From an uncultured bacterium (GTDB lineage Bacteria; Acidobacteriota; Thermoanaerobaculia; Multivoradales; J023), in contig CBDUGP010000024.1 in the NCBI GenBank assembly GCA_965366625.1, positions 3,767-67,766 on the forward strand: a stretch of DNA of 64,000 bases, written 5' to 3'. This document shows positions 28,218-57,160 of the stretch, piece by piece. A model generated the notes under the pieces. The model had not been told where the DNA came from. It worked only from the letters and a program-made list of their open reading frames with translations, and ran no database searches. The translations under genes were made by a program, and so were the position numbers. Positions within the stretch are counted from its first letter, which is position 1, and each line of letters opens with the position of its first letter.

Positions 28218-30563
28218 ATGACCGTTCGATTCGAGATCCGGAATCAGCCCCTGGGGCTCGTCGCATGGATGGCTTGCGCCCTGTGCCTGACTTTCTACGC
28301 TTTCCCGGTCGTGGCCGAGACCCCCGGAGTTGGGGATGTCGCCGGCAACGGCAACATCCAGGCGGACGAGGCTGTCGCGATCGCCGACAACGAGACCGAC
28401 AACGAGACCGACAACGAGACCGACAACGAGACCGAGGTTTCGACAGCCCGGGACGAGGTGATCTACGAGCGGGTGACGGTGGTCGGAAATGCTGAGAAGG
28501 CGGCGAGGATTCCCGGCTCGGTCCACGTGATCGGCGCGTTGGACTTAGCCAAATTCCGCTATGAGGACGTGCACCGGATCTTGCGTCAAGTGCCCGGGGT
28601 CAACATCCAAGAAGAGGACGGTTACGGCTTGCGACCCAACATCGGTATGCGCGGGACCGGTGTGGAGCGCAGCCAAAAGGTGACCCTGCTCGAAGACGGC
28701 GTGTTGATCGCTCCGGCCCCTTATTCGGCGCCGTCGGCCTATTACAGCCCGACCGCAGGGCGGATGGAGGCCTTGGAGGTGCGCAAGGGTTCGTCGTCGA
28801 TCCGTCAGGGCCCCCAAACCAACGGCGGCGTGGTCAATTACGTTTCGACCGCCATCCCCGGAGACCGGCGAATCTCCCTCGACCTCTCCGGCGGCACCGA
28901 CAACACCTTCAAGCTCAAGGGAAGCGCCGGCCTTTCGACCGAGCGATTCGGATTCTTGGTGGAGGCCTACCAGCACAGCACCGACGGCTTCAAAGCGTTG
29001 GACGGCGGTGGCGACACGGGATTCGAACTCGAGGACTACCTGACCAAGTTGCGCTGGACCTCGGCACCGGAGGCTCTGATTTTCCAAAGCCTGGAGCTCA
29101 AGCTCGGCCACACGGAGCAAAGAGGTGACGAAACCTACCTGGGTTTGACCTCGGCAGATTTCGAGGTCACCCCTTTTCGGCGTTATGCCGGCTCCCAGGA
29201 AGATCGGATCGACACCGATCACGACAGCTTTTCTTTGGCGTGGACCTTGATTCCGCGGCAGGACTTTGAGGTCACCACCACGGTTTATCGCAACGAATTT
29301 TTCCGCAATTGGTATAAGAACGAGTCGACCCTGGGCGTGGGAAACTCCAATATTTTGGGCTCGCCGGACCTCTACTCCGACGCCTTGGCCGTGCTGCGCG
29401 GTGAGGTGAATAGCGTTGACGATGCCCTCAAGCTGCGCAACAACCGTCGCGAATATTATTCCCAGGGCATCCAAACCACCCTCGGTTGGCGGCCGAACGC
29501 CCACCACGACGTGGAGGTGGGAATCCGGGTGCACGAAGACGAGGAAGATCGTCTGCAAGAAGAAGACGGTTATGCCATGCGCGACGGTCGTTTGGTGCTG
29601 ACCAGCTTCGGCGTTTCCGGCAGCCAAGCCAATCGCGTGGCGACGGCCGAAGCGGTGGCGATTTTCGTGCAAGACGAGATTACCTTCGGCAAGCTCAAGT
29701 TGGTTCCCGGGCTGCGTTACGAGACCGTGGACACGGAACGGCGGGACTACGGGCGATCCGATGCCGAGCGCACCGGTGCGGATCTCCAATTCCGCAACAA
29801 CTCCTTCGATGCGTGGATGCCTGGTCTCGGGATCCACTACGAGGTGGGTCATGGTTGGGGTCTGTTCGGCGGTGTGCATCGCGGATACGCACCGCCCAGC
29901 CCGTCGAGCACCGATGAAGTGGAACCCGAGGATAGTGTCAATTGGGAACTCGGTACCCGATTCCAAAAAGGCGACACCCAGCTCGAGCTGGTCGGTTTCT
30001 TCAGCGACTACTCCAACCTCCTCGGCGCCGACACCTTCTCCGGCGGCGGCACGGGAACCGGTGATCAATTCAATGGCGGTGATGTGGACGTGATGGGTTT
30101 GGAGGCGGGTTGGCGTCGCGTGGTCGGACGTGGGGACGGCTGGCAGTTGCCGTTGAACGTCACCTACACCTACACCCAGGGCGAGTTCCGTTCCAATTTC
30201 GCCACCAGCTTCGCCGATTGGGCCCCGGAGGTTTCCGTGGGCGACGAGCTGCCCTACCTGCCGGAGCATCAGCTCTATGTGGAACTCGGAATCCAGACGG
30301 ACCGCTGGAGCGTGTTTGCCAACGCTGGATATGTGTCGGAAATGCGCACCACCGCCGGTCAGGGTGCCATCGCCCCGGACGAGCGCATCGAGGACCATTT
30401 GGTTTTCGATTTGGGGGCCACCTGGCAAGTTTCCGATCGTTACGGTTTCGTGCTCAACGTCCGCAACCTGACGGACGAGGTCTATGTGGCGGCACGTCGG
30501 CCCTACGGTCTGCGTCCTGGAATCTCTCGCCAAACCACGGCGGGCATCAAGCTACGCTTCTGA
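28218..30563 (+). CDS. TonB-dependent outer-membrane receptor with an N-terminal (DNET)4 repeat extension
   Basis: Signal peptide, plug region and a C-terminal '...AGIKLRF' ending in Phe. Confidence 0.85.
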   Translation: MTVRFEIRNQPLGLVAWMACALCLTFYAFPVVAETPGVGDVAGNGNIQADEAVAIADNETDNETDNETDNETEVSTARDEVIYERVTVVGNAEKAARIPGSVHVIGALDLAKFRYEDVHRILRQVPGVNIQEEDGYGLRPNIGMRGTGVERSQKVTLLEDGVLIAPAPYSAPSAYYSPTAGRMEALEVRKGSSSIRQGPQTNGGVVNYVSTAIPGDRRISLDLSGGTDNTFKLKGSAGLSTERFGFLVEAYQHSTDGFKALDGGGDTGFELEDYLTKLRWTSAPEALIFQSLELKLGHTEQRGDETYLGLTSADFEVTPFRRYAGSQEDRIDTDHDSFSLAWTLIPRQDFEVTTTVYRNEFFRNWYKNESTLGVGNSNILGSPDLYSDALAVLRGEVNSVDDALKLRNNRREYYSQGIQTTLGWRPNAHHDVEVGIRVHEDEEDRLQEEDGYAMRDGRLVLTSFGVSGSQANRVATAEAVAIFVQDEITFGKLKLVPGLRYETVDTERRDYGRSDAERTGADLQFRNNSFDAWMPGLGIHYEVGHGWGLFGGVHRGYAPPSPSSTDEVEPEDSVNWELGTRFQKGDTQLELVGFFSDYSNLLGADTFSGGGTGTGDQFNGGDVDVMGLEAGWRRVVGRGDGWQLPLNVTYTYTQGEFRSNFATSFADWAPEVSVGDELPYLPEHQLYVELGIQTDRWSVFANAGYVSEMRTTAGQGAIAPDERIEDHLVFDLGATWQVSDRYGFVLNVRNLTDEVYVAARRPYGLRPGISRQTTAGIKLRF
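28386..28433 (+). repeat. Perfect 12-bp x4 tandem repeat (gacaacgagacc) inside the TBDR N-terminal extension
   Basis: Seen directly. It encodes DNETDNETDNETDNET. Confidence 0.9.
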
Positions 30564-34801: not shown

Positions 34802-36190
34802 ATGGGAGCCTTCTACAACAGCATTTGCCTACCCGGCGGCGAGCCCGCCGAGATCCGTCATGCGTTGGAGCGTTGGCTCTTGGGCCGCGGATACCGCCGT
34901 TCCCAGGAAGCGGTGCTCTTCGACCTGGACGGTGACTCTGAGCGCAGTGTTTTCCTGGTTTGGAACGATCGCTGGACGATCGTCTATTTTAGCCATTGGG
35001 ACGAAGAACGTCGCCTGATCCGCGAGCTCCAAACCGAGCAATTCCCCTTGACCTACGTCTGGGTTTACGACAGCGATGTGTGGGGTTTCGACCTCTTCGA
35101 CGCCCACGGATTCGTCGGCTCGTTTTCCTCCGATCCCAAAGACCACCAGAGCTTCGCCGACGAGATGGTGCCCGGTGAGCAGCGTCCGCCGGTGGATCCC
35201 GCGGCCATGATCGAGCTGTTGAATTTGGACCCGCAGCTAGCGTCCAAGATCACGGCGACGATGAAGAAGGTAAGCCCGTTTCAAGAGGAAATCTGCCGTG
35301 AGTTGTGTGCTTTGCTCGAGATCGAGCCGGCCGCAGCGAGCTATGACGACCTCGAATCCGGCAAGCTCGAAAGGGTGCTCGAAGGCTGGAATAAGGACCA
35401 ATGGGTCTATTTTCACTACCACCGGGCCGTGGAAACCATTGAGGGGGACCTGGACTTGCACGGGGTGGAAATCGATGGCGCGCCACCCCCGGGCTGGGAA
35501 GAGCAGGCCACCCAACAAGTTCGTTTGTCTCCGGAGCTGCAAGCGGAAATGGAGCAAATGCGGCGTCGGGCACGCTTCATGTTCTTCGTCGTACGGCCGA
35601 TCTCTTGGTTGGCCCGGGCTTGGCGCCGACTTTACGAACTGAGCTTTCTTCGACTGGCTCCCAAACCCGCGCCCGAGCCCGAGCGACGGTCCCCGGTTTC
35701 CATCGAACGGACGGCCACCGCCACCCGGCACGAAGTGCGTAATTTTCGCCACGGAGTTCGGATCCTCTTGCCGGCCGGTGTCGAACCCCTTGAGGTCTCG
35801 GGCAAACCCGCGACGGTATTTTCATTTCGTTGTGGGGATACCGCGGTGATGTGCACGGCCCGGCGATTGCGGCATTTGTGGGAGGTGCTCCGCCCTCCTG
35901 CTTTGTCGAAAGTATTACGGCACGAGAAATACAAAGTCGGCCCGCTGCTGGCCCGCCACGTGCTGTTCGAGTTGCCGCCGTCACGCTTCGCCCCCGGTCC
36001 GGATCAACGTTATCTGGCCCTGCACGTGGTGCAGACTTACCGCGCGCTCTATGTTTTCCTCTATCGCTTTAAGGGCAAGATCCAACCCGAGGTGGAGGAG
36101 CTGATCCGCACCGCGGTTTCGAGCTTCCGGGAAGACGAACCCGTGCCCGGCGCCGTGCGACGGCGAGCCCCGGGGCTAGCGACCCGCTGA
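34802..36190 (+). CDS. Hypothetical protein (462 aa), co-directional with the STAND kinase
   Basis: A long ORF with normal codon usage. No domain recognised. Confidence 0.5.
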   Translation: MGAFYNSICLPGGEPAEIRHALERWLLGRGYRRSQEAVLFDLDGDSERSVFLVWNDRWTIVYFSHWDEERRLIRELQTEQFPLTYVWVYDSDVWGFDLFDAHGFVGSFSSDPKDHQSFADEMVPGEQRPPVDPAAMIELLNLDPQLASKITATMKKVSPFQEEICRELCALLEIEPAAASYDDLESGKLERVLEGWNKDQWVYFHYHRAVETIEGDLDLHGVEIDGAPPPGWEEQATQQVRLSPELQAEMEQMRRRARFMFFVVRPISWLARAWRRLYELSFLRLAPKPAPEPERRSPVSIERTATATRHEVRNFRHGVRILLPAGVEPLEVSGKPATVFSFRCGDTAVMCTARRLRHLWEVLRPPALSKVLRHEKYKVGPLLARHVLFELPPSRFAPGPDQRYLALHVVQTYRALYVFLYRFKGKIQPEVEELIRTAVSSFREDEPVPGAVRRRAPGLATR

Positions 36191-36251: not shown

Positions 36252-36493
36252 GCAAGCCACGGGCTGGGCGCCACGGGCTGAAGCCCGAGGCTACATTTGC
36301 CTTGCCCCTGCGGGGCGGCCCGGAAGGAAAGGCAAGCCACGGAACAAATTCCGAGGCTGGGCGCCCCCGGCTACCTTTGCCTTGCCCCTGCGGGGCGGCC
36401 CGGAAGGAAAGGCAAGCCACGGAACAAATTCCGAGGCTGGGCGCCCCCGGCTACCTTTGCCTTGCCCCTGCGGGGCGGCCCGGAAGGAAAGGC
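36252..36493. repeat. About 3 copies of an 80-bp tandem repeat with an internal GC hairpin, between convergent genes
   Basis: Unit 'ctacctttgccttgcccctgcggggcggcccggaaggaaaggcaagccacggaacaaattccgaggctgggcgcccccgg'. Two perfect copies plus one degenerate. Confidence 0.85.
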
Positions 36494-36517: not shown

Positions 36518-39040
36518 CTAGGGGTAGTAGCCGCGAATCGACCGGGTGCGCAGGCCCGGTCGGTCGACCTCCACGTCGATGCGTCTGAAGGTGCCTCGGC
36601 CTTTGCCTTCTGGAGCCGGATACACCAACAGATATTGGGAGCGTAGGTCCTGCTCGATTTGGTCGTAGACCCGGTCGAGTTCGGACACCGAGCGAATCGA
36701 AAAGGCGCGTCCGCCGCTCGATTGGGCCAATCCGCCCAGCTGATCGCGGGTGGCTTCGTCGGCGACGGACAAGAGGATGGGGTAGACCGCCACCCCTGCC
36801 TTCAGCACCTGATCCATGGCGGGTTCGAACTCAAAGTCGCTTTCCACGTCCTTGCCGTCCGAGAGCAGGACCAACGCGCGACGGCCGGTTCGTCCGCCAA
36901 AATAACCGGCGGTGTACACCAACGTGTCGTGCAGTCGGGTGCCTCCCCAGGGCACCAAACCGCTGGAGCCCAGGCGCAAGGGGTTGATCTGGTCGGTGAA
37001 CGGCACCGCCAGTCGAATGTCGTGATTAAAGGTGACCAACGCGGCTCGATCTTTGGGCGTGAGCACGGTCTCAAAAAAGCGTCGAGCGCTGTCGACCGCA
37101 AAGCTGAGCCTTTCGCGCATGGAAACCGACGTGTCCATGGCCAACACCACCTGGATCGGCAGATCCGACACGGTGGAAAAGCGGGCCGGTTCCTGGGGCT
37201 CGCGATCTTCGAAAATTCGGAAGTTTTCGGACTTGAGGCCCACCACCGGACGCCCCGTCGAATCTTCCACGGTGGTGAAGACCTCCACCCACCGAACGTT
37301 GGTGGATTCGAGAGGTTGAGAGCCGACCGAGATGAACGCCTCCGCTCGATCGCCGCCGGCGAGTTCGGCCACGGCGCGAACGAATTTGGCGTTGGGTGAG
37401 AGGGGATTCGGCAGCCCGGCGCGAAAGGGCGGTTGGTCGAAATAACCGAGCAGCAAACCATCCAGATAGAGTTCCACCCGCTTGAGCGTCTCGCCCTTCG
37501 GCACGTGAACCTTGGCCACGGCTTCCACCGCGGTCTGCAAGCGTTGGCCGGCGGTGAGTTGGCCCTTCTCAGGCGAAGTCAGCCGGACTGAAAAGGGCGG
37601 CTCGGCCGGGTCGAGCCGGATCTCATCCCGCGCCAGCTCCTCGCCGTCGGGTGAGAAAGCGATCGCGGTGACCTGGTGCAGGGCGGGTGTGTCACCGAGA
37701 TCCACCACAGTCTGGAACGGCGCCTCCCCATCACTGCCCGCCGGCTCGCCGTCGAGCTTGAAGTCGACCCGTGCGATCGGTCCACCGTGGGTCACGGTTT
37801 CGATGTCCACCCGTCCTGCGAGGCTCTCCCCGGGTGGAACCAGCTCCACGCTGGGGAAGGTCAATAGGCTGACGATTTGTCGTTTGGTGAGTTCGGTCAT
37901 CTTGCGCTTGCCGGCGTCGCTCAGCTCATCTTTCGATTCCGGCACCCGTAAGGTTAAGTCTCGGCGCATCAAGGCCAGGCCGTGATCGTCCTCGAGCCGC
38001 AAACGCATGAGGTATTTGGCGGGCCGCAAACGACGATAAAAGTCCAATCGCACGTTGTCCGTTTTAGGGGCTTCACCGGCCAGGTGGTAAACAATTTCAA
38101 ACCGATCAGTCACGTGGCGTCCCAGCAGGACCTCACCGGACAATACGAAGCGATCGAAGAGCTGGCCGGCGTCACCCCGGCGGATGGCTTGCACCGGCAC
38201 CTCCACGCGACCCAACACCACAGTCTTGCGCCCGTCCCGGCCCGGAAACCCTACGGCCACGTGGTCCGTGGGTAGCTTCAAGCGGCGCTCGCTCAGCTCC
38301 TGATTGAACGTTTCCAACCAACCGGGATCCGGCGCCGCGCGCTCCACCCATCCGTCCACGGTGGTTTGTCCAATGGCGTGAGTCAACGCCGAACGTAAGG
38401 TTTTAGCTTCGTCCTCACCGGTCCGAAAGCATTTCCGCTCGCGCGAATATTGAATCACCTGCTCGATCGTGCGTCGGCTGAACGGCGCATCATGCTCCGA
38501 CAACGCACCAATACCGTCCTCAGGGCTCCACTGGCCAAATTGACCGTCGCGCGCGCCATAATCGCGAGTGAACACCAAATAAAACCCCTCGCGCTGCTCA
38601 CCCGCCAGCTCCGTCGCCTGCCATCGGTTGTACCACCAAATCCGCAACGGCCGAATCACCCCCCGGCATCCACCGTAAACGAAAATCCGATCCGGCACCC
38701 CCGCCGTCAAAAACGCCTGCGCCCGATCCCCCGAAAGCTGCTCAAAACGTCGCCGAACCTCCGAAAACCGAGCCCCCCACCGAGCCGCCGGCCCAGAATC
38801 CCCAACCCCATCCCCACCTTCACCGCCTCGACCCCGAGCCCGCCAAAACGCCCGAATAAAAAGCTCCCGATCCACATCCGACCCCAACCCCTCAAACCCC
38901 AACACCTCCGCCTCCAACATCAACGGCCGAGCCGCCGTCAACCACTCGTCATAAAAGCGGTCGATACGAGGCCCCTCCGGCTCGGCCAGCAGGGTTGGGG
39001 TGAGGAGGAGAAGGAGCAGGAAGAGTGCAGGGTGTCGCAT
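36518..39040 (-). CDS. Secreted large protein with a C-terminal-half vWA domain
   Basis: Signal peptide 'MRHPALFLLLLLLTPTLLA'. The vWA MIDAS-like segment 'VVLAMDTSVSMRE...ALVLLSDGKD'. Its 5' end abuts the islet's left repeat. Confidence 0.7.
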   Translation of the reverse strand: MRHPALFLLLLLLTPTLLAEPEGPRIDRFYDEWLTAARPLMLEAEVLGFEGLGSDVDRELFIRAFWRARGRGGEGGDGVGDSGPAARWGARFSEVRRRFEQLSGDRAQAFLTAGVPDRIFVYGGCRGVIRPLRIWWYNRWQATELAGEQREGFYLVFTRDYGARDGQFGQWSPEDGIGALSEHDAPFSRRTIEQVIQYSRERKCFRTGEDEAKTLRSALTHAIGQTTVDGWVERAAPDPGWLETFNQELSERRLKLPTDHVAVGFPGRDGRKTVVLGRVEVPVQAIRRGDAGQLFDRFVLSGEVLLGRHVTDRFEIVYHLAGEAPKTDNVRLDFYRRLRPAKYLMRLRLEDDHGLALMRRDLTLRVPESKDELSDAGKRKMTELTKRQIVSLLTFPSVELVPPGESLAGRVDIETVTHGGPIARVDFKLDGEPAGSDGEAPFQTVVDLGDTPALHQVTAIAFSPDGEELARDEIRLDPAEPPFSVRLTSPEKGQLTAGQRLQTAVEAVAKVHVPKGETLKRVELYLDGLLLGYFDQPPFRAGLPNPLSPNAKFVRAVAELAGGDRAEAFISVGSQPLESTNVRWVEVFTTVEDSTGRPVVGLKSENFRIFEDREPQEPARFSTVSDLPIQVVLAMDTSVSMRERLSFAVDSARRFFETVLTPKDRAALVTFNHDIRLAVPFTDQINPLRLGSSGLVPWGGTRLHDTLVYTAGYFGGRTGRRALVLLSDGKDVESDFEFEPAMDQVLKAGVAVYPILLSVADEATRDQLGGLAQSSGGRAFSIRSVSELDRVYDQIEQDLRSQYLLVYPAPEGKGRGTFRRIDVEVDRPGLRTRSIRGYYP

Positions 39041-39222
39041 GCCGGAATTCTATGGGGCGGGGGAATGGATAGCGAGGGGAGGTAGCCCTTGGTGGGGGCG
39101 GTTTGTACCCGGAGGGAGGGGATAGCAACTGAATGTTGGCTTCGTTGCAACAACTACGGATAACCGTCTATTAACGCAGTTTTGAGTCGATGTCTTTAGG
39201 TGAATCGATATTGGAGGTGAGG

Positions 39223-40455
39223 ATGAGCGAGATCTTCCAGAGAACGGTGCTGCCACAGACACTTAGAAGGATTTTTGACGATCGGCTCTACGAAAATTCA
39301 GGTCCTATAGAGTTTCTAGAGCTATCTGGATGGGATCATCCGCGTTTAGCAGGTTCTACCATGAGCTTCGAGGTGAGTTTCACAGATTTGGAACTTAGTC
39401 GATATGTTCTGGACTACGAGCAACCGAACATCGAGTTTGAGACAATCAAGAAAAACATCGCAACACATTTATCCCTGCTTGAGCTGGGCACCGAGATAAA
39501 TCATAGGCAAATTCAACTCACCTATGGCGGAACAGGAGCACTGAGTCTGCTTTTGCACTGGGTTAAGTCTAAAGGAATTGAGATGGTTGTCGCTGATCCG
39601 CCATTCTATTTCAGCCTTAAACACTTAACAAAGTATCTCAATCTTGATTTGATTGCAGCAGAAAGAAACATCTTAGGACTCCACGACCCGAAACCTCTCT
39701 TGAGAGTCCTCCAAGAACACAAGGCGATACGAAAGGCTGTCTATATTGCTCACCCCCGGTATGTAGTTGGCGGCGCTTACTCAAAAGGTGAGATAGCAGA
39801 AATACTCGCGTGTCTCAGAAGTGATGATCTGCTAATTGTCGACAACTCTATCAATTTGATGATCGAGCAAGACAGCCTTAGTCTAGGGGACCACTCAACA
39901 GTCGCAGTCGTCAAAACGATTGGCAAGTCAATTAGTATGTATGGGTGTCGGCTTGCAGCCATTGTGACCTCAGAGGCGGTGAGAGCCGAACTCAATACAA
40001 TTTCTGAGTGGTTGTTTGGAGGTTACGATGTTGGGATGCTTAGGGTTGCCCATCAGCTAACAGTAAATCACTATAGATTTAAAGAACGAGTGCTAGCTAC
40101 AAGACAGCTTGTTGACGAGTCGTATAGGAACGTCCTGAGCAAGTTGGCGGCGGAAGTCGTGGCCCTGCCAAAGCCGAATTCTACCTATCTAGGTTATGCA
40201 TTGGTTGATACAGATTCTATCGGGAGATATAGGCTGTATCAATTCTTCCTGAGAAACCGGATAAACGCCATGTTTTCTGAACAGATAGGTCTCGCACGAA
40301 TTGCCGGTTTAGATCTCATAAGGATAAACTACCTTCTTGACATCGATAAAGCTGTCGGTCTCCTATCCGATTTCGCGGCACAGGCCAGAAAGAAAGGCTG
40401 CTTCCGATCTGCCTGGGCTCATACTACTTTGGGAAGAAAGACTCTGTCTCGATAG
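39223..40455 (+). CDS. Divergent PLP-dependent aminotransferase-fold (class I/II-like) protein on the islet
   Basis: Strong RBS GGAGGTGA before the ATG at 39223. Candidate PLP-lysine motif 'TIGKSISMYGCRLAAIV', resembling SxSKxxxxxGxRxG. The usual DEVY-type motif is replaced ('IVDNSINLM'). GC is about 45%. Confidence 0.5.
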   Translation: MSEIFQRTVLPQTLRRIFDDRLYENSGPIEFLELSGWDHPRLAGSTMSFEVSFTDLELSRYVLDYEQPNIEFETIKKNIATHLSLLELGTEINHRQIQLTYGGTGALSLLLHWVKSKGIEMVVADPPFYFSLKHLTKYLNLDLIAAERNILGLHDPKPLLRVLQEHKAIRKAVYIAHPRYVVGGAYSKGEIAEILACLRSDDLLIVDNSINLMIEQDSLSLGDHSTVAVVKTIGKSISMYGCRLAAIVTSEAVRAELNTISEWLFGGYDVGMLRVAHQLTVNHYRFKERVLATRQLVDESYRNVLSKLAAEVVALPKPNSTYLGYALVDTDSIGRYRLYQFFLRNRINAMFSEQIGLARIAGLDLIRINYLLDIDKAVGLLSDFAAQARKKGCFRSAWAHTTLGRKTLSR

Positions 40456-40456
40456 A

Positions 40457-42490
40457 CTATGTCTCAAGTTGAAGATCCGCTGTCAGCTCTCGCGACAAGA
40501 GAATTGGTTCTTCGGATTCATCAGAGCACAACCTCATGGCTGCAACACCCAGCTGAAAACAGTATGGTATTTCACGTCCAGCAGCAATCGCCTTGTAGAA
40601 GCCGGACGAGAAACCGACCGCCCCCTCGTCGGAAAGCCTTGAGCTGACACCGATTACAAACGGAGCATGCTGGCTTATCGATCGCGCTTGGGACTCTGAG
40701 TAGCACGCATTTAACACAATGCAGGTTGCTTGCTGTGGCAGTAACTCCAACAAGCGATTCAGTGTTTCGTTCGAGACTGGTCGAGGGTTGCCTGCAGAGT
40801 CTAGAATCATAATTCCATCTTCGGATCCATGCCCAGAAAAATGAATGATAAAGGGTGAGTGCTCCAATGGGACCAGCAAAAAGGTTTCTTCGTCTACAGC
40901 CCATTCTTGCTCCAAGCTGAGGTCTGCGCCCCGGACTCCCGTTCGAAGGGAGTTCCTTATCATCTTTATTTCGCGTTCAAGCTCCAGCTGTGTGCTGTGG
41001 GGGTTGGCACTTAGAAATAATATTACTTCTTTTGATCCCTTTCGGCTCTTGCCCGATTTGTTAGCGACAAGAGATTTCTTGCTCGCTGCCCTCGGTAGTA
41101 GGCCGATGACCATTCTTCGAATTTCGGCCAGTGTAGAAAAATCCAGGCCTGTAGAAAACTTGATACACGCAATCTTGGGGAAGTTCAGCATGACCAAAAC
41201 GGAATAGTCCACTGTCCTGTTGTCAGACTGCCCAAGCGACTGGTGACCTGCGGTCAAGAGAAGTTTTTGTGTCGAAGATTCGTAGTTAGATATCTCCAAC
41301 CGAAATCTGGCCGACAGGAAAACGGCCATTGCAAAAATCATGTTCATGCTGTCCGGCGAAACTAGGGCAGCTAGTGAGGGGGAGTTTAGTTTGAGAACAG
41401 ATTCGACTTCAACTTCAACTCCACTTCCATCGACTAGAGCTTGAAGTTGCCCCGCTGTTGTTTTTTCCGGGACCAGAATAGAAGCCCGAGCAAGTTCCGT
41501 CTGGTCAATTGAGACAAGGCTGCTGGCCGCAACAAGTAGGTTCTCATAGTATTTGCGCAGCTTTCCTGAACAGAACTCCAAGGTTTCGACGACGGTAGAA
41601 GGGAGTTCCCGACCTGAGGCTGTGTCCAGTAGGGCATGAATCGATAGAAAGAGCCTGGTAAGAAAAAACACCATTATTCGGTTCTGTTGATAGAGAGCCA
41701 CCAAGAACGAAGAGAGATGTCTCAGCCCTGAGAGGATATGTAGGATGTTAGATTCCTCAATCTCCGAGAACCTGAGATTGACGGCATCCACCAATTCTTT
41801 TGAGTGATTGAGATCTTTCTCTAAGAAAGCTGCGGCACTAACAGATTCTAAGATTGTTTTTGGGGAAACTTCATCGATTCGAATGCTCAACCCTGATTCA
41901 GGTCGAATCAGGGTTACATGCTCTAAACTAGATCTTTGAAGGCCGAAGTTCTGAAGCACCGAGGGTTCTTGCAATGTTAATTCAATAAAGCGACATTCAA
42001 GTAAAAGGCAATGCTCCAGCAACTTATTGGAAGTTGTACAATTGCGAAATTCACAACCGAAAAGTTTATCGTTTTTAAACGTAGTTCCAGAGAGATCGCA
42101 ATCCCTGAATTTCACATTTTCAAAATGACAATCTACAAAGACTGTATTCCGCAGGCCAGCGTTGACAAAGTCAACATCTCGAAATGTGCATGAGCTAAGG
42201 AGATTGTCGAAGAAATCACAATAAAAATGAACCGAGTTGAAGAAAGTATCTTTGGCGTCAATTTCACAAAAATCCGCATGAAATTCACCAAATTGGACTC
42301 TGCAGGAAATCAGGTTCGGCTCAAATGCGGAGCTTCCCCTGGGAATCGTTCCGCCTAGAAAACACTCAAAGAGTTCGTGAGCTACAATTGGACTATCAAG
42401 CAAACTAAGGTCGATACTGGCGCCTCTCACTATACCGCCTGGGATGTTGCCCTTAAGGTTGCGTGCGGCATGGTCGAGCTTCTTCATCAT
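40457..42490 (-). CDS. Pentapeptide-repeat + CHAT (caspase-like) protease domain protein on the islet
   Basis: N-terminal pentapeptide repeats ('FRDVDFVNAGLRNTVFVDCHFENVKFRDCDLSGTTFKNDKLFGCEFRNC'). C-terminal caspase-like His/Cys dyad ('IIHFSGHG' ... 'CIVLNACYSESQ'). Low GC. Confidence 0.65.
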   Translation of the reverse strand: MMKKLDHAARNLKGNIPGGIVRGASIDLSLLDSPIVAHELFECFLGGTIPRGSSAFEPNLISCRVQFGEFHADFCEIDAKDTFFNSVHFYCDFFDNLLSSCTFRDVDFVNAGLRNTVFVDCHFENVKFRDCDLSGTTFKNDKLFGCEFRNCTTSNKLLEHCLLLECRFIELTLQEPSVLQNFGLQRSSLEHVTLIRPESGLSIRIDEVSPKTILESVSAAAFLEKDLNHSKELVDAVNLRFSEIEESNILHILSGLRHLSSFLVALYQQNRIMVFFLTRLFLSIHALLDTASGRELPSTVVETLEFCSGKLRKYYENLLVAASSLVSIDQTELARASILVPEKTTAGQLQALVDGSGVEVEVESVLKLNSPSLAALVSPDSMNMIFAMAVFLSARFRLEISNYESSTQKLLLTAGHQSLGQSDNRTVDYSVLVMLNFPKIACIKFSTGLDFSTLAEIRRMVIGLLPRAASKKSLVANKSGKSRKGSKEVILFLSANPHSTQLELEREIKMIRNSLRTGVRGADLSLEQEWAVDEETFLLVPLEHSPFIIHFSGHGSEDGIMILDSAGNPRPVSNETLNRLLELLPQQATCIVLNACYSESQARSISQHAPFVIGVSSRLSDEGAVGFSSGFYKAIAAGREIPYCFQLGVAAMRLCSDESEEPILLSRELTADLQLET

Positions 42491-42559
42491 ATCAATAATA
42501 GACGGTTATCCGTAGTTTGCAGAATTTTCTCGGAATTCTGGAGCTGAAACCTGGCTTAA

Positions 42560-43501
42560 TCAACAAGAGGTCAACGAAAAATTCGGGTGAAACTGCTGCA
42601 ATTTCGCGGCTAGGCCTTCTTTCGACACGTGTAGGTACCTTTGTGTGGTGGCGATGGATCGATGGCCTAGGAATTCTTGGACGATTCGGATGTCGGCGCC
42701 TTGGTCGAGCAGCATGGTCGCGATGGTGTGTCGGAGCATGTGGGGGGTGACTCGCTGCGCGATGCCGGCTTCTTCGGCGATGCGTCGGATCGAGTTGGCG
42801 ACGCCTTGGGTGGAGAGCGGGCGTCCGAAGACGTTGACGAAGAGGTGGTTGTGGTCGGTGGTCAATTTGATGCGTTCTTGACGATAGCTTTCCACGGCTT
42901 GGCGTGAGCGAGGGTCGGTGAGTAGGGCCACTCGTTGTTGGCCGCCTTTGCCGTGGATCAAGAATTCGTGGAGTTCGGGCTGGTAGTCGCTCAGGCGTAG
43001 TGCGGTGAGTTCGCCGACTCGAATGCCGGTGGCGAAGAGCAGCTCGATGACCGTCCAATCTCTGAGATCGAGAAAGCCGCGATGCAGGCGGGTCGGCACG
43101 GGTTGCTCGAAGGTCGTGACGCGCGACCGTGCTTGTTGCAGCAGTTTTTGGATGTCCGGCAGGTTTAAGCATCTCGGTAGTTGTTTTTGGTGCTGTAGAT
43201 CCAAGCGGATCCGCCAAAGTGGCGAAGCGTCTAAAACTCCCTTTCTGACCCAATATCCAAAGAAGACCCGAAGCGCTGCGAACTTACGGCGAATCGAGCT
43301 GGGTGCGTATTCCTCGAGTCGCAGGAAATCTGCCCATGCTTCCAGCTGGTCCGGCTGAACTTCGGTCACCTCTTGTGTCGGTTTCAAGAACCGATAGAAT
43401 TGTAGCAGATCGATCCGATATGCGCGCTGGGTTCTATGGCTTCGGCGACATGTCGAGAAGTACCCCTCGTGGAATTTTTCGATGGCGATGTCTAGCAGCA
43501 T
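42560..43501 (-). CDS. Tyrosine site-specific recombinase (XerC/XerD-like integrase)
   Basis: 'HMLRHTIATMLLDQGADIRIVQEFLGHRSIATTQRYLHV' with the catalytic R...HxxR...Y. 313 aa. Confidence 0.9.
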   Translation of the reverse strand: MLLDIAIEKFHEGYFSTCRRSHRTQRAYRIDLLQFYRFLKPTQEVTEVQPDQLEAWADFLRLEEYAPSSIRRKFAALRVFFGYWVRKGVLDASPLWRIRLDLQHQKQLPRCLNLPDIQKLLQQARSRVTTFEQPVPTRLHRGFLDLRDWTVIELLFATGIRVGELTALRLSDYQPELHEFLIHGKGGQQRVALLTDPRSRQAVESYRQERIKLTTDHNHLFVNVFGRPLSTQGVANSIRRIAEEAGIAQRVTPHMLRHTIATMLLDQGADIRIVQEFLGHRSIATTQRYLHVSKEGLAAKLQQFHPNFSLTSC

Positions 43502-43788
43502 CTCTTGCTCCTCACGCTCCCGGCTGCGCCAATCGTAGCTTTGGGTCGTTTAGTCGATTGATTTAGTTCTATTTAGGCGAGAATTTTCTGCATTGGCGAG
43601 AAAAGCATAGCAGCCGGTGGCGCGGGATCGCCGGCTCCTGGGGGCCCCGAAGAATGCCCAAACCGTCAACGAGCCTCCGAGAATCGGGCTTCCAAGAAGC
43701 CTCGGGTCTTGCATCTCAAAACGGATCCCCGGTTCCTCGATGGTGTCGACTTCGACCGTGTCGACGTAGAGCGTGCCGAAATGTTCGA

Positions 43789-43925
43789 CTAACGAGCTTC
43801 CGACCACATCCGAACCCAACCCTCCAGCGCCCCGATCTCCACCTTCAACTCGAGGTCGAGTTGGGTTAGCCACTCGTCATTGAAGCGATCGATACGGGGT
43901 CCCTCGGGCTCGGATCCACACCTGT
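43789..43925 (-). pseudogene. Remnant of a duplicated 5' end of the vWA gene (right-hand att-like repeat)
   Basis: It encodes '...EPEGPRIDRFNDEWLTQLDLELKVEIGALEGW', homologous to residues ~20-60 of the 36518..39040 product. The signal peptide is missing. Confidence 0.55.
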
Positions 43926-44572: not shown

Positions 44573-47500
44573 ATGAGACGTTTTTTGAGCCCATCCCAGG
44601 TCGGAATGCTCCCCGGACACCTCAGTGTCGTTTTCTTTTTCTGGCTCCTCGTCTTGGGCTCCGTCCCCGGAACGGCTCAGCTCCGGCAGACGTTCTTCGT
44701 GCCTCTGGATGAAACCCATGTTCGGGACATCGGTTTCGCCATTACTTCCGCTGCGGGTGATACGACCCATGCTGTGATCTCGTTGTCGGCCACGGCGAAC
44801 GGAACCACGGTCTATTACGATCATTGGGAGGACGGCTACGAAGCCGACCTGGAAAATCCGGTCCAGGCTTCGACCGAGACTTTCCTGCTCGACGCCGGCG
44901 GATTCGTCGCCCTTGAAGACGATATCGACGTCAATCCTCGGGATCCCTTGATTATCGAATATGACGGCCGAGACAAGATCGGGGCGACCGAGCAAATCGC
45001 GGTCACCCGGGCCGGCTGGCGTCTTGCGGAATCCACTTTGTTGGCCGGCGCCATCGAGGTTTTCCCGGTCATTGATTGGGGACAATTCTTCGAGTTTCCC
45101 CTCGGCGAGGACATTGTTTCGAGCCAAACCTTCGAATATGTTGCTGCGTCGATCATGGCCGGCGAAACCGGTGCCATCTTCGATATCGACAGCGACGGTG
45201 ACGGCACGGTGGACTCCACCATCACCCTCCTGCCGGGTGAGACGACCCTGGTCACCGGAATCAACACCGGAGGCACGATCGCTTCGTCCGACCCCCTGCA
45301 GGTCAAGCTGCTCACCGGTGATTTGGGCAGCACCTTCGCATCCCGATGGTACGACTTGGTGTCCACGGAGATTTGGGGCTCGAGCTACTACAGCCCTGTT
45401 TCATCGGTGCCCACATCCGAGAACCGGATCTTTCTCTACAACCCGGGCTCCTCGTCGATCACCGTCACCCACGAGACGATCAGCGCAACGGTGACCACAC
45501 GCACCTACGACAACACCACCGCCGGCACGCTCGATGAAACCGTGGCGCCTTGCGGCGCACCGATGGTTCGCACCTTTACGGTGCCAGACACCTTTACCGT
45601 CAATGCCGCTCGGCTCGGCTTCAACGCCACCCATACCTATCGCGGTGACATCCAAGTCACATTGATCTCTCCCGGCGGCACGAGCCGGACCGTGATCGCT
45701 GCCAATGGTGGCGACGGAGACGATAACTATGACGTCTTGCTCGACGGCACCTCAGCCAACCCCCTCGACGACGGCAATGCCGACACGACCGCTGCGCCTT
45801 TTTATGATCGATCCGCGCTGAGTCTCATCGACTTTCCCGGCGAAGCCGCGAATGGTGTCTGGACGTTACAGATTTGCGATTCCTTTGGCGGTGATGCCGG
45901 TACGTTCAACAGAGCCCAACTGCAGCTTGACGAAGCCACGGGTACGACCATCAATACCGGTACTGTGGCAGTGGCAGCGAGCGGCATCACTGAATTCTCG
46001 GTGCCCCTGAACTCGGCGGCCCATTTCTTCACCGCCACGGGCGAGACTTTTTTCGCCACCGCGGCGGTCGATTGGAACGACACCAGCTCCGATTGGGGTT
46101 TCACCCTGCTGCCGGAAGAAGCTCTGGCAACCACTATCGTCACCGGCTGGGCTCCGGGACGCGACCCCGCATCGGGCGTCAATCCGACTGAGAATGGGAG
46201 CCCAATTTGGGTCACAGCCACCGGCGCGACCGATCTTTATGTGGACTACGACGGCGATCCGTCCACCGGCGCTTTGGTGGACTCCAACGGCAATCGCTAC
46301 GACGAACTCGTAGCCATCACCGAGCTGGAATCCGTCAGGCTCTTTGATCCCAACGATACGGACCAGAATCGTGTTCGGGTCTACACCCTGGACCAGACCT
46401 TGATCGCCGCGGCGTGGGGGCAAGACGCGGTCAACGCCAGCGCCGCAGCCCCGGCCATTGATGTTGGCACCACGGTGGTTCCCTTGGACGCCCTGAGGGC
46501 GCTGAAAGAAGGCAGCCTGCTCAACGATGCGGATGGCGACGGTGCCTTAGGTCCGGGCGACACCATGCGCTACACCATCGTCATCAGCAATGTTTCTGAA
46601 GCGGTGGTGACCGGCGCCACGGTAGAAGACTTTGGGCTCGATTCAAATCTGACCTATGTGGCCGATTCCACGGAAATCGACGGCCTCGCCATTGCCGACG
46701 ACGCCATCGGCGTCACGATCTTTCCCCTCGATGAAGGTGGCCAGCCGCTTTCCACCATCGGCATCGGCGAATCCGTCACCGTCACCTTCGCGGTCCAAAT
46801 CGCCGATCCCCTGCCCGTTGGGGTCGAAAGTCTGTTGAATCAAGTCCGCGTTTCCACTTCGACCCAAATCGAGGTCGGCTCAACCCTGACGACGATTCTT
46901 GCCCCCGCTCTGTCGATCACCAAGACCTCGAATGTGGTCGGCGATGTGGTGGCGGGTCAGACCATCGAGTACACGGTCACGGTCAATAACATTTCCGCGG
47001 GTCCTGCCCGGGGCATCAAGATTCTCGACACCCTGCCCGCGGGAACGACCTACAACGCCGAATCCACCGTGGCAACCGGATTTTCGGACGTTTTCTTAGG
47101 CACGGAGACGGTTACCGATGAGCCGGCCGGCGGTATTGCCTTCGACTCCGGATCCAATCCATGCGGCGGCACGCCGGTCACCCGGACCTTTACGGTGGCC
47201 AATTCCTTTACCGTGTCCGACGTGGATCTCGGCTTCAATGCGGATCACACTTACCGCGGCGATATTCAGGCGGTGCTCGAATCACCCGCCGGAACCCGCA
47301 TCACCGTCTTGACCGGTATTGCAGACCCTGACAACAACTACGACATCGTGTTGGACGACGAATCCGTCAACCCACTGGACGACGGAACTCCGGATAATAC
47401 CGCTGCCCCCTTCTACGATCGCGACGTGATACCCAATAACGCCTTGTCCGGCTTCGACGGCGAAACCTCGGTCGGCACCTGGACCCTCGAGATCTGTGAT

Positions 47501-50500
47501 GACGCCGGGGGCGATAGCGGCACCTACAACCGGGCGCAGCTGCGCGTTTCCGGCTCCAATTCCGCCGCGCAGTCCCGTACCAACCAGGCAGCGGCGATTA
47601 ATCCGCTGCTCGATGGCGATCCCACCAACCTGGTGTTGGCACCGGACGGCTTTGGCCTGCTTCCCGGCCAGGTCATGACCACCACCTACCAAGTGACGGT
47701 GGAAGATCCTTTGGCCTTCAGCACCACGGCGATCACCAATACGGCCCGGGTCACCAGCCTGGAGCAGCCCGAACCGCTGACCGCTACGGTGGTCGATCCG
47801 GTGACCGAAGGGGCGGCCATCGGGGATCGAGTTTGGCTCGATGCCGACGGCGACGGTTTCCAAGATGTCGGTGAGACCGGCATCGCCAATGTCACGGTAA
47901 ATCTCTACGATCCGGGCGGTGACGGTGCTCCGGGTGGGGGCGACGACACCCTGATCGGCTCGGTGACCACCGACCTCAACGGCATTTACCTCTTCGACCA
48001 TCTGCCGGCCGGCTCGTACTTCGTCGATGTCGATGGCGCCACCCTTCCACTGGGGCTGACGACCTCACCGGGCACCACGGATCCGAGTTCGGTGATCACC
48101 GTGACGGCAGAGGAAATCCGCCTCGACATCGACTTCGGTTATACCAACGCCGACGGTGGGACCGCGATCGTCGGTGATCGGGTGTGGTCCGACTTCGACG
48201 GCGACGGCATCCAGGATCCCGGCGAGCCGGGCATCGGCGGGGCGACTGTCGAGCTGCTCGACGACACCGGCAGTGTGGTGACCACCGTGATCACCTCCGA
48301 CGATGGCGCTTACCTCTTTACCGGCGTGGCTCCAGGGGAATACCAAGTCCGGATCGCGGCCAGTAACTTCTCAGGCGGCAACGCCCTCGACGGTTATACC
48401 GTCACCACCGGGCCCCAAAGCGAAGGCGCCAATACCAGTGATCCCGTGACCTTGCTCGCCGGCGACGTGCAAACCGACGTCGATTTCGGCTACCAGAACG
48501 TGGCGTCGACCTATTCCATTACCGACGCGGTTTGGCTCGATGTGGACAGCGACGGCGCTTTCGATCCCTCGGAGTCCGGCATTGCCGGCACGACCGTCGA
48601 TCTGCTCGACGCTTCCGGTGATGTGATCGCCACCACCCTCGTGGCCGCCGACGGCTCGTTCTCCTTTGATGGCGTGGAGCCCGGTAGCTACACGGTTTCG
48701 ATCAGCGACAACAGCGGCAAGCTGATCGGCTTGGCCGGCACCACCAGCGCGGGAACGGCTCGCCAACTGGCGGTGACCGTGGTCGCGGCCGATGTCACCG
48801 GCCAAAACTTCGGCTACAACGGCGAGGCCTTGTTGGGAGACCGCATCTGGTCCGACGCCGATGGCGACGGGGTGCAAGACGAAAACGAGGTCGGCCTAGC
48901 GGGTGTGACCGTTGAGCTTCTAGACCGGCTCGGCGCGGTGATTGACACCACCACCACCGACGCCTTTGGCGACTACCTCTTCGACGGCATCTCACCGAAT
49001 CAATACACCGTGCGGGTCGACGCAACGTCGCTGCCGGCGGGCTTCACCCAGACCGGTGATCCGGACGGCACCCTGGACCACCAATCGGCGAGTGTGTTGA
49101 CCATTGGCGATGCGGATTTGGTGCTCGATTTCGGCTATCGGAACACGTCGCTGGCGGACATTTCCGGCAATGTGTTCTCCGATTTCGACCGCGACGGCAT
49201 CGACGACGGCGTGGGCGAGCCCGGTTTCACCGGGGTGTCGTTAGCCCTGCTCGACAGCTCAGGCAACGTGGTCGCCACGGTCAAGACCGACGCCAACGGG
49301 GATTACACCTTTGCCGACCTGCCGGCAGGCAATTACACCGTACAAGTGACCGACGATAGCGGTGTTCTGGCCAACCACGAACTCACCAGTGGTCTCGATT
49401 CCGTGCCCGTGACTCTGGCCGGTACCGACATCACCGATATCGATTTCGGTTACGCCCGTAATTCCGGCACCGGCGCCATCGGAGACTATGTTTGGCTCGA
49501 CGCCGACCGAGACGGCGTCCAAGACGCCGGTGAGAGCGGCCTGTCGGGGGTCGATGTCGACCTCTACGACGTCGGTCCCGACGGCGCGGTCGGCGGCGGT
49601 GACGATGTGCTGATCGCCTCGACCACCACTGACGCCAACGGTGGTTACATCTTCACCGGCATCGCCCCGGGCGCCTACTACGCCGATGTGGACGGCACCA
49701 CCGTTCCCGCCGGCTTGGCGACCACCAGCGGTACCACCGTTCCGTCCGGCATCGTTTTGCTTTCCGAAGGTGAGCTGATCGACGACCTGGACTTCGGTTA
49801 CGGCGGCACCCCCGGCTCGAGCGCCATCGGCGATCGAGTTTGGGCCGACGTCGATGGCGACGGTATCCAAGATCCCGGTGAGATCGGCATCGGTGGCGTG
49901 ACGATCACCGTGGTCGGTCCGTCCGGCACGTTCACCACGACCACGGCCGAAGACGGCTCCTGGCTGGTGACCAGCCTGGCACCCGGCACCTACACCGTGA
50001 CCGTGGATTCCTCGACGTTGGCGAGCGCCTACGACACGGCGCCGACCAACGGACCCGCAAGCCGGGAGTATGAGGTCACCTCGTCCGCCGACGTGCTGAC
50101 CGCCGATTTCGGCTTCGACGGCGCGATCCTCGGCTCCATCGGTGATCTCGTGTTCCTCGACGAAGACGGTGACGGCTCTCAGGGAGTCGGTGAAGCCGGC
50201 ATCGCTGGAGTCACGGTCGACCTGCTGGACTCGGGCGGCAACTTGGTGGCAACCACCACCACGGACGAAAACGGTGCCTACGACTTCATGGGCCTGCCGG
50301 CTGGTGACTACCAAGTCCGGGTGAGTGACGTCGGCCAGGTGCTGACCGGGCTCAACCTGTCCTCGGGCAGCAATCCCACGGCGACGATCAATTTGGCTGC
50401 CGGTCAGGACTATGACGACGCCGACTTCCCCTATGCGCCGTCCTCAGGCTCCGGCAGCATCGGCTCGATCGTATGGAACGACCAGAACGGCGACGGGGAT

Positions 50501-56500: not shown

Positions 56501-57160
56501 CAACGGCGCGTCCTGCTGCTGGCGGACAACGACGACATGGGCGGCGATTTCTCCTCGGAAATCCAGCAAGTGGCGTCCCAGCTGTCACCGGAGCTACAGG
56601 TGGAGACCGGCTTCCTCGGTCTCGAAGGCGTCGGTGGGCTACGTGATCGTCTGACCGGCGCGCTCGATCGAGGGGTCGGGCTGGTGGACTGGATGGGTCA
56701 TGGCGGCCTGGATCGACTGGCGGAAGAAGGACTGCTGCTGAGCGCGGACGTGGCGCAGATGCAACACGTGAATCAACCGATCTTCGCCTTGCTCTCCTGC
56801 AACGTGGCTCGCTTCGAGCTGCCGGGATTCTGGAGCCTGGCCGAGGATCTGGTGCTCGCCGAAAGCGGCGGCATCGCGGTTATCGCACCCTCCGGTCTGG
56901 CCCTCGACATCGACAGCTTCGATGCCAATCAGATCCTCATGGAGGAGCTGTACAGCGGCGGTCACAACACCTTGGGTCAGGTCTTCCAAACCATGATTCA
57001 GCGCTTCGTAGGCGTCGCCCGCCTACCCTCCGATCCGCAGGTCTACATGCTCATCGGCGATCCGGGATTGCGAGCCGGCCAGTCCGGGCTTCCCGGAGCC
57101 CTGCTATTCGCCGATGGCTTCGAGACCGGCGATACGTCTAGGTGGAGTGCTCAGCCCTGA
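44573..57160 (+). CDS. Giant (4195 aa) secreted surface protein: 2x proprotein-convertase P-domain, DUF11-like repeat, about two dozen SdrD/Cna-B-type repeats, C-terminal peptidase C25 (gingipain-like) domain
   Basis: AAGGAAG RBS and signal peptide. P-domain signatures ('[17 protein letters not shown]...GVWTLQICD', present twice). Recurrent '[22 protein letters not shown]..VTVEL...TTTDANGNYLF' units. C-terminal His/Cys dyad ('VDWMGHGG' ... 'ALLSCNV' ... 'IGDPGL'). Confidence 0.85.
   Translation: [4195 protein letters not shown]

Follow-up and report, generated by a model that had tools for sequence, protein, structure and literature searches.

A rare aminotransferase-fold enzyme in a two-armed, possibly invertible cassette beside an Xer-like recombinase gene

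Why would the gene of an aminotransferase-type enzyme lie almost stop codon to stop codon with that of a caspase-like protease protein, on a segment that sister strains replace with other genes? This question is raised by a 64,000-nucleotide stretch of contig CBDUGP010000024.1 (assembly GCA_965366625.1) from an uncultured bacterium of the Acidobacteriota (Multivoradales, J023), which we refer to as the window. An original prediction had described the open reading frame (ORF) at 39223-40455 as a degenerate protein with the fold of aminotransferases dependent on pyridoxal 5'-phosphate (PLP), carried as islet cargo. Our preferred reading, in which we place about even confidence, is that the gene encodes an active PLP enzyme and forms one arm of a two-armed, conflict-like cassette that a dedicated Xer-like recombinase could flip (Table 1).

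A divergent PLP enzyme and its small family

The ATG at 39223 is preceded by a Shine-Dalgarno sequence (GGAGGTGAGG), and database protein P0001 is the 410-aa product of this start codon. The ORF and both motifs quoted in the original prediction ('TIGKSISMYGCRLAAIV' and 'IVDNSINLM') are present in the sequence, and the aminotransferase fold proposed there was borne out by profile and structure searches. Pfam PF00155 (Aminotran_1_2) matched residues 85-338 with 42.2 bits (E 7.8e-11; cut-off 19.7), and a profile of the family matched solved class-I aminotransferases in the PDB (2gb3, E 3e-12; 4my5, E 6e-11), with the aspartate aminotransferases at E 3e-12. The AlphaFold model (predicted local distance difference test [pLDDT] score, 79; predicted template-modeling score, 0.82) recovered the fold-type I architecture, with a large alpha/beta domain and a small C-terminal domain. 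When this model was searched against the PDB with Foldseek, the top 50 matches were all class-I aminotransferase-family PLP enzymes (aminotransferases, 1-aminocyclopropane-1-carboxylate [ACC] synthases, and a C-S lyase), with a probability of 1.0, template-modeling scores of 0.57-0.70, and identities of 13-18%.

Alignment with solved enzymes allowed us to assign the family motifs to parts of the active site. The GxTxA motif is the phosphate loop and aligns to GGSEA, whereas DPPFYFS aligns to E-PFYANY and provides the aromatic residue that stacks on the ring, likely Tyr129. The motif lilDqav aligns to LIVDEVY, placing Asp207 at the pyridine nitrogen, and vRiNyLL aligns to LRISYAA of 4my5, placing Arg367 ('RINYLL' in the window) at the substrate carboxylate. 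Finally, rTlGKsis..GaRla aligns to DSVSKKFS..GARVG of 2gb3, with Lys235 as the Schiff-base residue and Arg243 at the phosphate. The candidate PLP lysine of the original prediction is this Lys235, the counterpart of the SxSK lysine. K235, R243, D207, and R367 do not vary among the 10 family members. The 10-sequence alignment contains further invariant residues (SGW35-37, Y61, A106, D125-P127-Y129-F130-S131, P178, G234, R335, and N369) and nearly invariant ones (T104, in 9 of the 10 sequences; Y180; and A245), and S/T232 is also kept across the family.

The two canonical contacts to O3' of PLP are replaced: the Asn of the NPTG motif is Tyr180, and the Tyr of the DExY motif is Ile210, a position occupied by an aliphatic or small residue in the relatives. 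Both contacting residues are typical of the superfamily, not universal, and Tyr180 could take over the O3' contact. The retention of the core catalytic and cofactor residues at ∼30% identity points to purifying selection on the chemistry. Based on this conservation and on the structure model, the protein is most likely a divergent, catalytically competent PLP enzyme acting on an alpha-amino-acid-type substrate.

The family is very small. An exhaustive hidden Markov model search of 1.84 billion cluster representatives (E<1e-30), by which the family is defined, identified just 10 clusters (P0001-P0010), whose members share 29-42% identity with the window protein; word-indexed protein searches gave just one or two relatives. 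All four clusters that we looked up (P0001, P0003, P0006, and P0009) had a single member, and the next relatives (P0012-P0022) were weak matches to aminotransferase-fold proteins without a family assignment. Scans of genome, metagenome, and viral contig collections with the family alignment returned no related loci, the plasmid collection held no relative of the enzyme, and exact-sequence contig look-ups for the window enzyme and its partner gave no match. A Joint Genome Institute source calls the relatives “histidinol-phosphate/aromatic aminotransferase-like.” None of the curated aminotransferase equivalogs in NCBIfam (HisC, AspAT, GntC, VioD, and others; cut-offs, 276-620) was reached, with top scores of ∼38 bits for GntC and HisC, or ∼10% of their cut-offs (276-415).

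The enzyme adds a new and rare member to a known superfamily and fits no curated subfamily. It has the same fold as class-I (subgroup I-gamma type) PLP enzymes, including aspartate/prephenate aminotransferases (2gb3, 1b5o, and 6f5v), HisC (3cq5), and ACC synthases (7dly and 1b8g). Also shared are the Schiff-base Lys, the Asp, the phosphate-binding S/T, Arg, and GxTxA loop, the ring-stacking aromatic residue, and the C-terminal Arg. It is unlike them in its low identity, in its altered O3' pair, and in belonging to a very rare, mobile family found outside metabolic operons.

The partner protein and the module in relatives

The enzyme gene converges with the partner gene as had been predicted, with a single base (40456) between the two stop codons. 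The C-terminal 190 aa of the partner scored below the Pfam CHAT threshold (17.5 bits versus a cut-off of 24) and are homologous to the SAVED-CHAT protein of a type III-B CRISPR system (structure 8tl0; profile E 1.6e-19, single-sequence E 1.3e-8), with the His/Cys dyad aligned (HFSGHG/HFIGHG and VLNAC). Unlike SAVED-CHAT, the partner carries no SAVED or other known sensor domain and has no CRISPR or cyclase neighbor. Its CHAT domain is instead fused to a pentapeptide beta-helix and a middle region of ∼300 aa without a recognized fold, for which no relatives were detectable outside the family. In a model built from a two-sequence alignment (pLDDT 45), the beta-helix was the sole confident part. 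A match to HalA (31.5 bits versus a cut-off of 250) spanned only the pentapeptide repeats; PHROGs likewise matched the partner via these repeats only and returned no match for the enzyme.

Gene order around the relatives was informative at seven loci, and the pairing with a partner is kept in five of them (L003/L004, L005, L007/L008, L009, and L010, the last with a 45-aa fragment). In L003/L004, a DUF1611 gene and the aminotransferase gene are followed by a convergent pentapeptide-CHAT gene; L007/L008 have an integrase gene, DUF1611, the aminotransferase, and then a convergent pentapeptide protein. DUF1611 and the aminotransferase meet a convergent partner fragment in L005 and L009 and run to the contig end in L006, whereas L010 retains the aminotransferase and the convergent fragment. 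The partner is absent in L001, which has the aminotransferase without DUF1611 or partner, and in L002, where DUF1611 and the aminotransferase converge on an unrelated 204-aa protein. The pairing suggested by the original prediction holds in this sense, but the CHAT domain is not its constant element. The pentapeptide and middle regions are kept in L003/4, L005, L007/8, and L009, whereas within the family only the window, P0166, and L003 were seen to have CHAT; L007 and L009 lack it. By sequence comparison, the constant part of the partner is the pentapeptide and middle regions, with CHAT as an optional addition.

A DUF1611 gene precedes the aminotransferase gene in most relatives and has been lost in the window, where tblastn found none. 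The DUF1611 proteins resemble the N-acetyltransferase DgcN (∼113 bits, under the cut-off of 480). The 3' ends of the enzyme and partner genes are separated by 15 nt in L003 and overlap by 20-83 nt at the other loci. The module lies 10-23 guanine-plus-cytosine (GC) points under its flank in every locus with a usable flank; in the window, the cassette has 46% GC (low-GC stretch, 46-49%) and the flanks have 62-64%. We found no description of the module in the literature on DUF1611/aminotransferase/pentapeptide genes, invertible defense cassettes, or CHAT with recombinases.

Two further observations concern the module and its domains. The DUF1611-aminotransferase pair of L002 (L002:6300-9300) lies on a low-GC islet (48% versus 71%) with no recombinase site motif, and the 204-aa protein on which it converges has a hydrophobic N terminus; this locus looks like a form of the module that lacks the sites. 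Separately, the short CHAT domain (∼190 aa, ILFLxANP...HFSGHG...LNAC) is promiscuous on cyanobacterial plasmids, where it is fused to TIR, NACHT, pentapeptide, metallophosphoesterase, and DUF900 proteins.

Inverted sites, the recombinase, and cargo replacement

The original prediction had not taken in the inverted repeats or the role of the recombinase. A perfect 22-nt inverted repeat encloses exactly the enzyme and partner genes, and such a pair is expected by chance ∼1.4e-6 times per 7 kb. From the end of the left core it is 14 nt to the ATG at 39190 and 47 nt to the one at 39223; the right core stops 3 nt short of the partner start codon (42490). The shared core, GATAAY-N5-ATTATC, has an asymmetric spacer between two short arms in inverted orientation, with a dif-like ATAA...TTAT symmetry. 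GATAA..ATTA was invariant across 12 aligned sites from eight loci. The strict core motif matched 16 times in ∼227 kb (∼0.05 expected), always at module edges or recombinase ends. The exact 22-nt repeat was not found in metagenome and genome collections, and the L003/L019-type core gave six single matches in viral contigs, a number that a rough estimate finds consistent with chance given the size of that collection. The first gene on each side begins within 1-60 nt of its site (partner ATG, 1-3 nt; DUF1611 or aminotransferase, 11-60 nt from the core), leaving little room for internal promoters.

The recombinase gene lies 42 nt beyond the right arm and 69 nt upstream of the partner gene and is transcribed toward the cassette; a terminator scan, with signal at background level, found no terminator-like site between the two genes. 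Its product matched Phage_integrase (131.7 bits) and a SAM-like N-terminal domain, contains ATGIR, HMLRH, and QRYLH, and scored 230 bits against XerC and 223 bits against XerD, both under the equivalog cut-offs. Similar arrangements were found at two other, unrelated metagenomic loci: L003 has a 17-nt perfect repeat with a Phage_integrase fragment just past its partner side, and L007 has 97-nt repeat arms, perfect over 90 nt. The recombinases beside these three divergent modules are ∼42% identical to one another, which, next to homologous modules, indicates that recombinase, site, and module travel together. We rejected an integron on the basis of a score of 100.9 bits for TIGR02249 (cut-off, 265) and of the sites, which are short inverted dif-like cores and not attC.

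Sister-strain contigs L011-L020 encode recombinases of 90% identity or more, and the neighbors there are again the 4,195-aa adhesin gene and the VWA gene. In blastn comparisons of the window with L019, L011, and L014, the flanks were 96-98.6% identical up to position 39122 and again from 42564, and the segment between them differed. At the same position, L019 carries a 6.45-kb cassette (L019:5369-11819) with a 31-nt perfect inverted repeat (core GATAAC-TAGAA-ATTATC) and ∼6.3 kb of cargo. In this cargo, the genes for a short-CHAT/AAA_16 STAND protein and a CHAP peptidase converge with those for a D-Ala-D-Ala-ligase-like ATP-grasp enzyme and a 479-aa protein that is unrelated to the enzyme and to the partner. 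The site is followed by a gene for a 1,478-aa CHAT-AAA_16 protein in L011, L013, and L016 and by glycosyltransferase (GT2) and DegT aminotransferase genes in L014 and L018. Five of the 10 sister contigs end at or within ∼40 nt of the site, and an identical stretch of recombinase and site continues into either of two alternative sequences. The finding of different cargo at one position in sister strains identifies the platform as a hotspot with replaced cargo, and the description of the window genes as islet cargo stands.

Most cargo variants include a short CHAT domain, which is fused to STAND ATPases in the L019 and L011 types and left only as a gene remnant in L014. This remnant (L014:4185-4447) matches 260 nt of the 3' end of the CHAT-AAA_16 gene (L011:13910-14170) at 84% identity in the opposite orientation, a sequence pattern that suggests a past rearrangement or partial replacement inside cassettes. 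We considered whether the L011-type and L014-type cargo are two ends of one cassette and rejected this, the remnant being their only common part.

Two copies of the VWA gene 5' coding region bound the recombinase and cassette together (∼38986-43913), and this platform looks like an old insertion into the VWA gene start. The duplication is also present in L019 and is therefore older than the cargo.

Table 1. Coordinates of the cassette, its platform, and the bounding gene in the window
Feature	Position	Strand	Details
PLP aminotransferase-type enzyme gene	39223..40455	+	410 aa; cassette arm A; alternative upstream ATG 39190
Partner gene, arm B	40457..42490	-	677 aa; convergent with enzyme gene
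Partner beta-helix, pentapeptide repeats, N-terminal	∼aa 20-175, nt 41966-42433	-	Pfam Pentapeptide_4, 41.6 bits
Partner CHAT caspase-like protease domain, C-terminal	aa 488-677, nt 40460-41029	-	His (HFSGHG), Cys (LNAC)
Inverted repeat, left arm	39152..39173	+	AACTACGGATAACCGTCTATTA; perfect 22 nt; core GATAAC-CGTCT-ATTAAC at 39159-39175
Inverted repeat, right arm	42496..42517	-	Perfect 22 nt; core 42494-42510, minus strand
XerC/XerD-like tyrosine recombinase gene	42560..43501	-	313 aa
Strain-variable cassette	39123..42563		Both sites, 29-46 nt outer flank per side, two genes; ∼3.4 kb
VWA gene	36518..39040	-	
Diverged duplicate of VWA gene 5' coding region	43750..43913	-	74% identity over 168 nt; other copy 38818-38985

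Beyond the platform, an 80-nt tandem repeat (36289-36493; 2.6 copies, 99% identity) lies between the ORF at 34802-36190 and the VWA gene 3' end, and the blastn pattern against L019 suggests that its copy number or register differs between strains. The 4,195-aa protein adjoining the platform (44573-57160) contains SdrD_B/P_proprotein repeats. Elsewhere in the window, adjacent minus-strand ORFs at 14491-20124 and 20281-25872 encode 1,877 and 1,863 aa, and a TonB-dependent receptor (28218-30563) has an N-terminal run of NETD tetrapeptides (DNETDNETDNETDNETE) after its signal peptide.

A putative two-state switch, its rivals, and known systems

In our preferred reading, arm A would comprise a DgcN-like DUF1611 protein (lost in the window) and the aminotransferase, and arm B the pentapeptide-repeat protein, here with its C-terminal CHAT domain. 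The arms converge, with 3' ends that abut or overlap, and each starts near an inverted dif-like site. Based on the established mechanism of tyrosine recombinases, the asymmetric spacer and the inverted sites would lead the recombinase to invert the segment and not to delete it. With each flip, the recombinase gene and its transcription would come to lead directly into one arm or the other, A or B, creating a two-state switch on a platform that also takes alternative cassettes in sister strains. The window would represent the state in which the CHAT arm is recombinase proximal and the aminotransferase arm lies toward the flank with the VWA gene. The junction present is recombinase flank-site-partner, and the flipped junction is predicted to read ...GAAAATTCTGCA-AACTACGGATAACCGTCTATTA-ACGCAGTTTTGAGTCGATG....

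Both orientations occur among relatives: in the window and L003, transcription of the recombinase gene points into the partner gene, and in L007 and L008 it points into the DUF1611-aminotransferase pair. Each end of the L007 contig has the 3' end of the recombinase gene together with the site, perfect over 90 nt. This would be expected if reads of both orientations were co-assembled or if the locus has two inverted recombinase copies; the complete islets of the window and L019 have one recombinase copy each. The resemblance to conflict systems comes from the homology to SAVED-CHAT, from the CHAT domains in sister cargo, and from the TIR and NACHT fusions known for this domain. The enzyme could also make a signal for the protease, or sense one. 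We also speculate that the recurring DgcN-like, Ddl-like, CHAP, and aminotransferase cargo points to amino-acid or peptide chemistry.

Several observations weigh against this picture. No single sample contained both orientations unambiguously, given that L007 could have two inverted recombinase copies, and the CHAT-bearing gene is recombinase proximal in four of five platform instances, which could reflect a fixed layout. A sigma-70 promoter scan gave a background-level signal with nothing near the sites, and no promoter was located; if the far-side flank held a promoter of its own, flipping would not switch expression. The differences between sister strains run 29-46 nt past the sites, into the last recombinase codons. 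As the replaced unit extends beyond the sites, cargo seems to be replaced by homologous exchange of the entire unit and not by site recombination. PADLOC-DB v2 contained no defense-model match for the enzyme, partner, or recombinase. The pathway of the enzyme may be incomplete without its DUF1611 companion, and the Tyr180 and Ile210 substitutions at the O3' contacts could affect activity. We put forward only tentatively the more specific proposal that the recombinase flips a promoterless cassette to select the small-molecule-enzyme arm (DgcN-like acyltransferase and PLP enzyme) or the pentapeptide/CHAT-protease arm, with alternative CHAT-bearing conflict cassettes exchanged between strains on one platform, making the locus a swappable, phase-variable immune or conflict locus of an undescribed toggle class.

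The main rival account of the same cassette, less likely in our view, is that it is only exchanged, through recombinase-mediated cassette exchange or in a pdif-like manner. The two arms would then be co-expressed as a single conflict or defense system in which the enzyme, with DUF1611 where present, produces, alters, or breaks down an amino-acid-derived small molecule that controls the partner or is sensed by it, a scheme near to the one in the original prediction. Exchange would explain why sister strains have different cargo at this position, enclosed by equivalent sites, and the joint retention of enzyme and partner in most informative relatives fits a functional pair. Moreover, CHAT and caspase-like proteases of bacterial immunity are known to be activated by small molecules (SAVED-CHAT, 8tl0; TIR-caspase preprint). 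However, the partner has no recognized ligand-binding domain, its CHAT domain is dispensable in L007 and L009, and convergent arms that abut or overlap with no terminator between them are awkward for co-expression. The closeness of the first genes to the sites and the exchange boundaries outside the sites also argue against it. We consider it improbable, in turn, that the repeats are transposon-like terminal repeats, or a chance or structural feature, and that the integrase merely inserts the islet into the VWA 5' end. The diverged direct VWA-5' duplication bounding the platform is as expected of an integrated element, but it is only 74% identical and is shared with sister strains that carry other cargo, and thus predates the cargo. 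In addition, there is no transposase inside the repeats, the recombinase-type core recurs at eight independent loci, and it lies directly after the recombinase gene.

The enzyme itself could be viewed as a non-catalytic structural or sensing partner of the CHAT protease, as the original prediction proposed in calling it degenerate. This view draws on the low PF00155 score, the shortfall against every curated NCBIfam model, and the loss of the NPTG Asn and DExY Tyr. Yet K235, D207, S/T232, R243, T104, Y129, and R367 are kept in a family of ∼30% identity, the DPPFYFS motif is invariant, only the O3'-contacting pair is replaced, and a nearly invariant Tyr180 could assume that contact. The altered DEVY-type motif, taken as a sign of degeneracy, retains its acidic residue, the D of 'IVDNS' being the invariant Asp207, and differs at the Tyr position, which is Ile210. 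A pseudoenzyme is accordingly quite unlikely. An ordinary housekeeping aminotransferase in a metabolic context, suggested by the Pfam assignment and by the database name of the relatives, is scarcely tenable given the curated-family scores and the lack of metabolic neighbors. Because the family comprises so few clusters, the module is low in GC, and sister strains lack the gene at this position, we conclude that the enzyme is a non-housekeeping protein on a rare, horizontally moving cassette.

The preferred reading, of an active enzyme in a flippable cassette, would have several consequences. If the cassette flips, phase variation would extend to the toggling of two unrelated units, an enzyme pair and a caspase-like protease protein, and the locus would be both toggled and cargo-replaced between strains, whereas known systems exchange versions of a single protein or invert promoters. 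Such a locus would be a tractable model for how costly conflict or defense genes are kept switchable, and its compact recombinase with a 17-nt site pair could be used for engineering. Independent of flipping, the enzyme, with its altered O3' pocket, represents a very rare, uncharacterized branch of the class-I PLP enzymes, and its substrate could reveal new amino-acid chemistry tied to CHAT proteases.

The closest parallels are inversion systems that swap genes, including the Gin/G segment of phage Mu, the Piv pilin system of Moraxella, the Rci shufflon of R64, and hsdS invertons with PsrA-type tyrosine invertases. As here, these have a recombinase gene beside a segment with inverted sites and opposed coding units that start at the sites, so that a promoter outside the segment would drive either unit in turn. 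They swap variants of one protein (tail fiber, pilin, or HsdS), whereas the arms here are unrelated whole genes and inversion is predicted from their arrangement. The pdif sites of Acinetobacter have an 11-6-11 structure and are acted on by the host XerC/XerD. Modules of this kind are similar in having cargo between inverted dif-like sites, exchangeable between replicons or strains, and a core of ATAA-spacer-TTAT; they differ from the present system, which has a 6-5-6 (or 5-7-5) core and a dedicated adjoining recombinase gene and is chromosomal. Integrons also have a platform marked by a tyrosine recombinase, with downstream, seemingly promoterless cargo that varies between close strains. Unlike an integron, the present locus falls far short of the integrase model, lacks attC sites, has a recombinase that reads toward the cargo, and holds a single cassette bounded by inverted sites in place of an array of directly oriented cassettes. 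Four features thus set the system apart from inversion systems, pdif modules, and integrons: the site, the dedicated recombinase, the single cassette with two arms, and the cargo.

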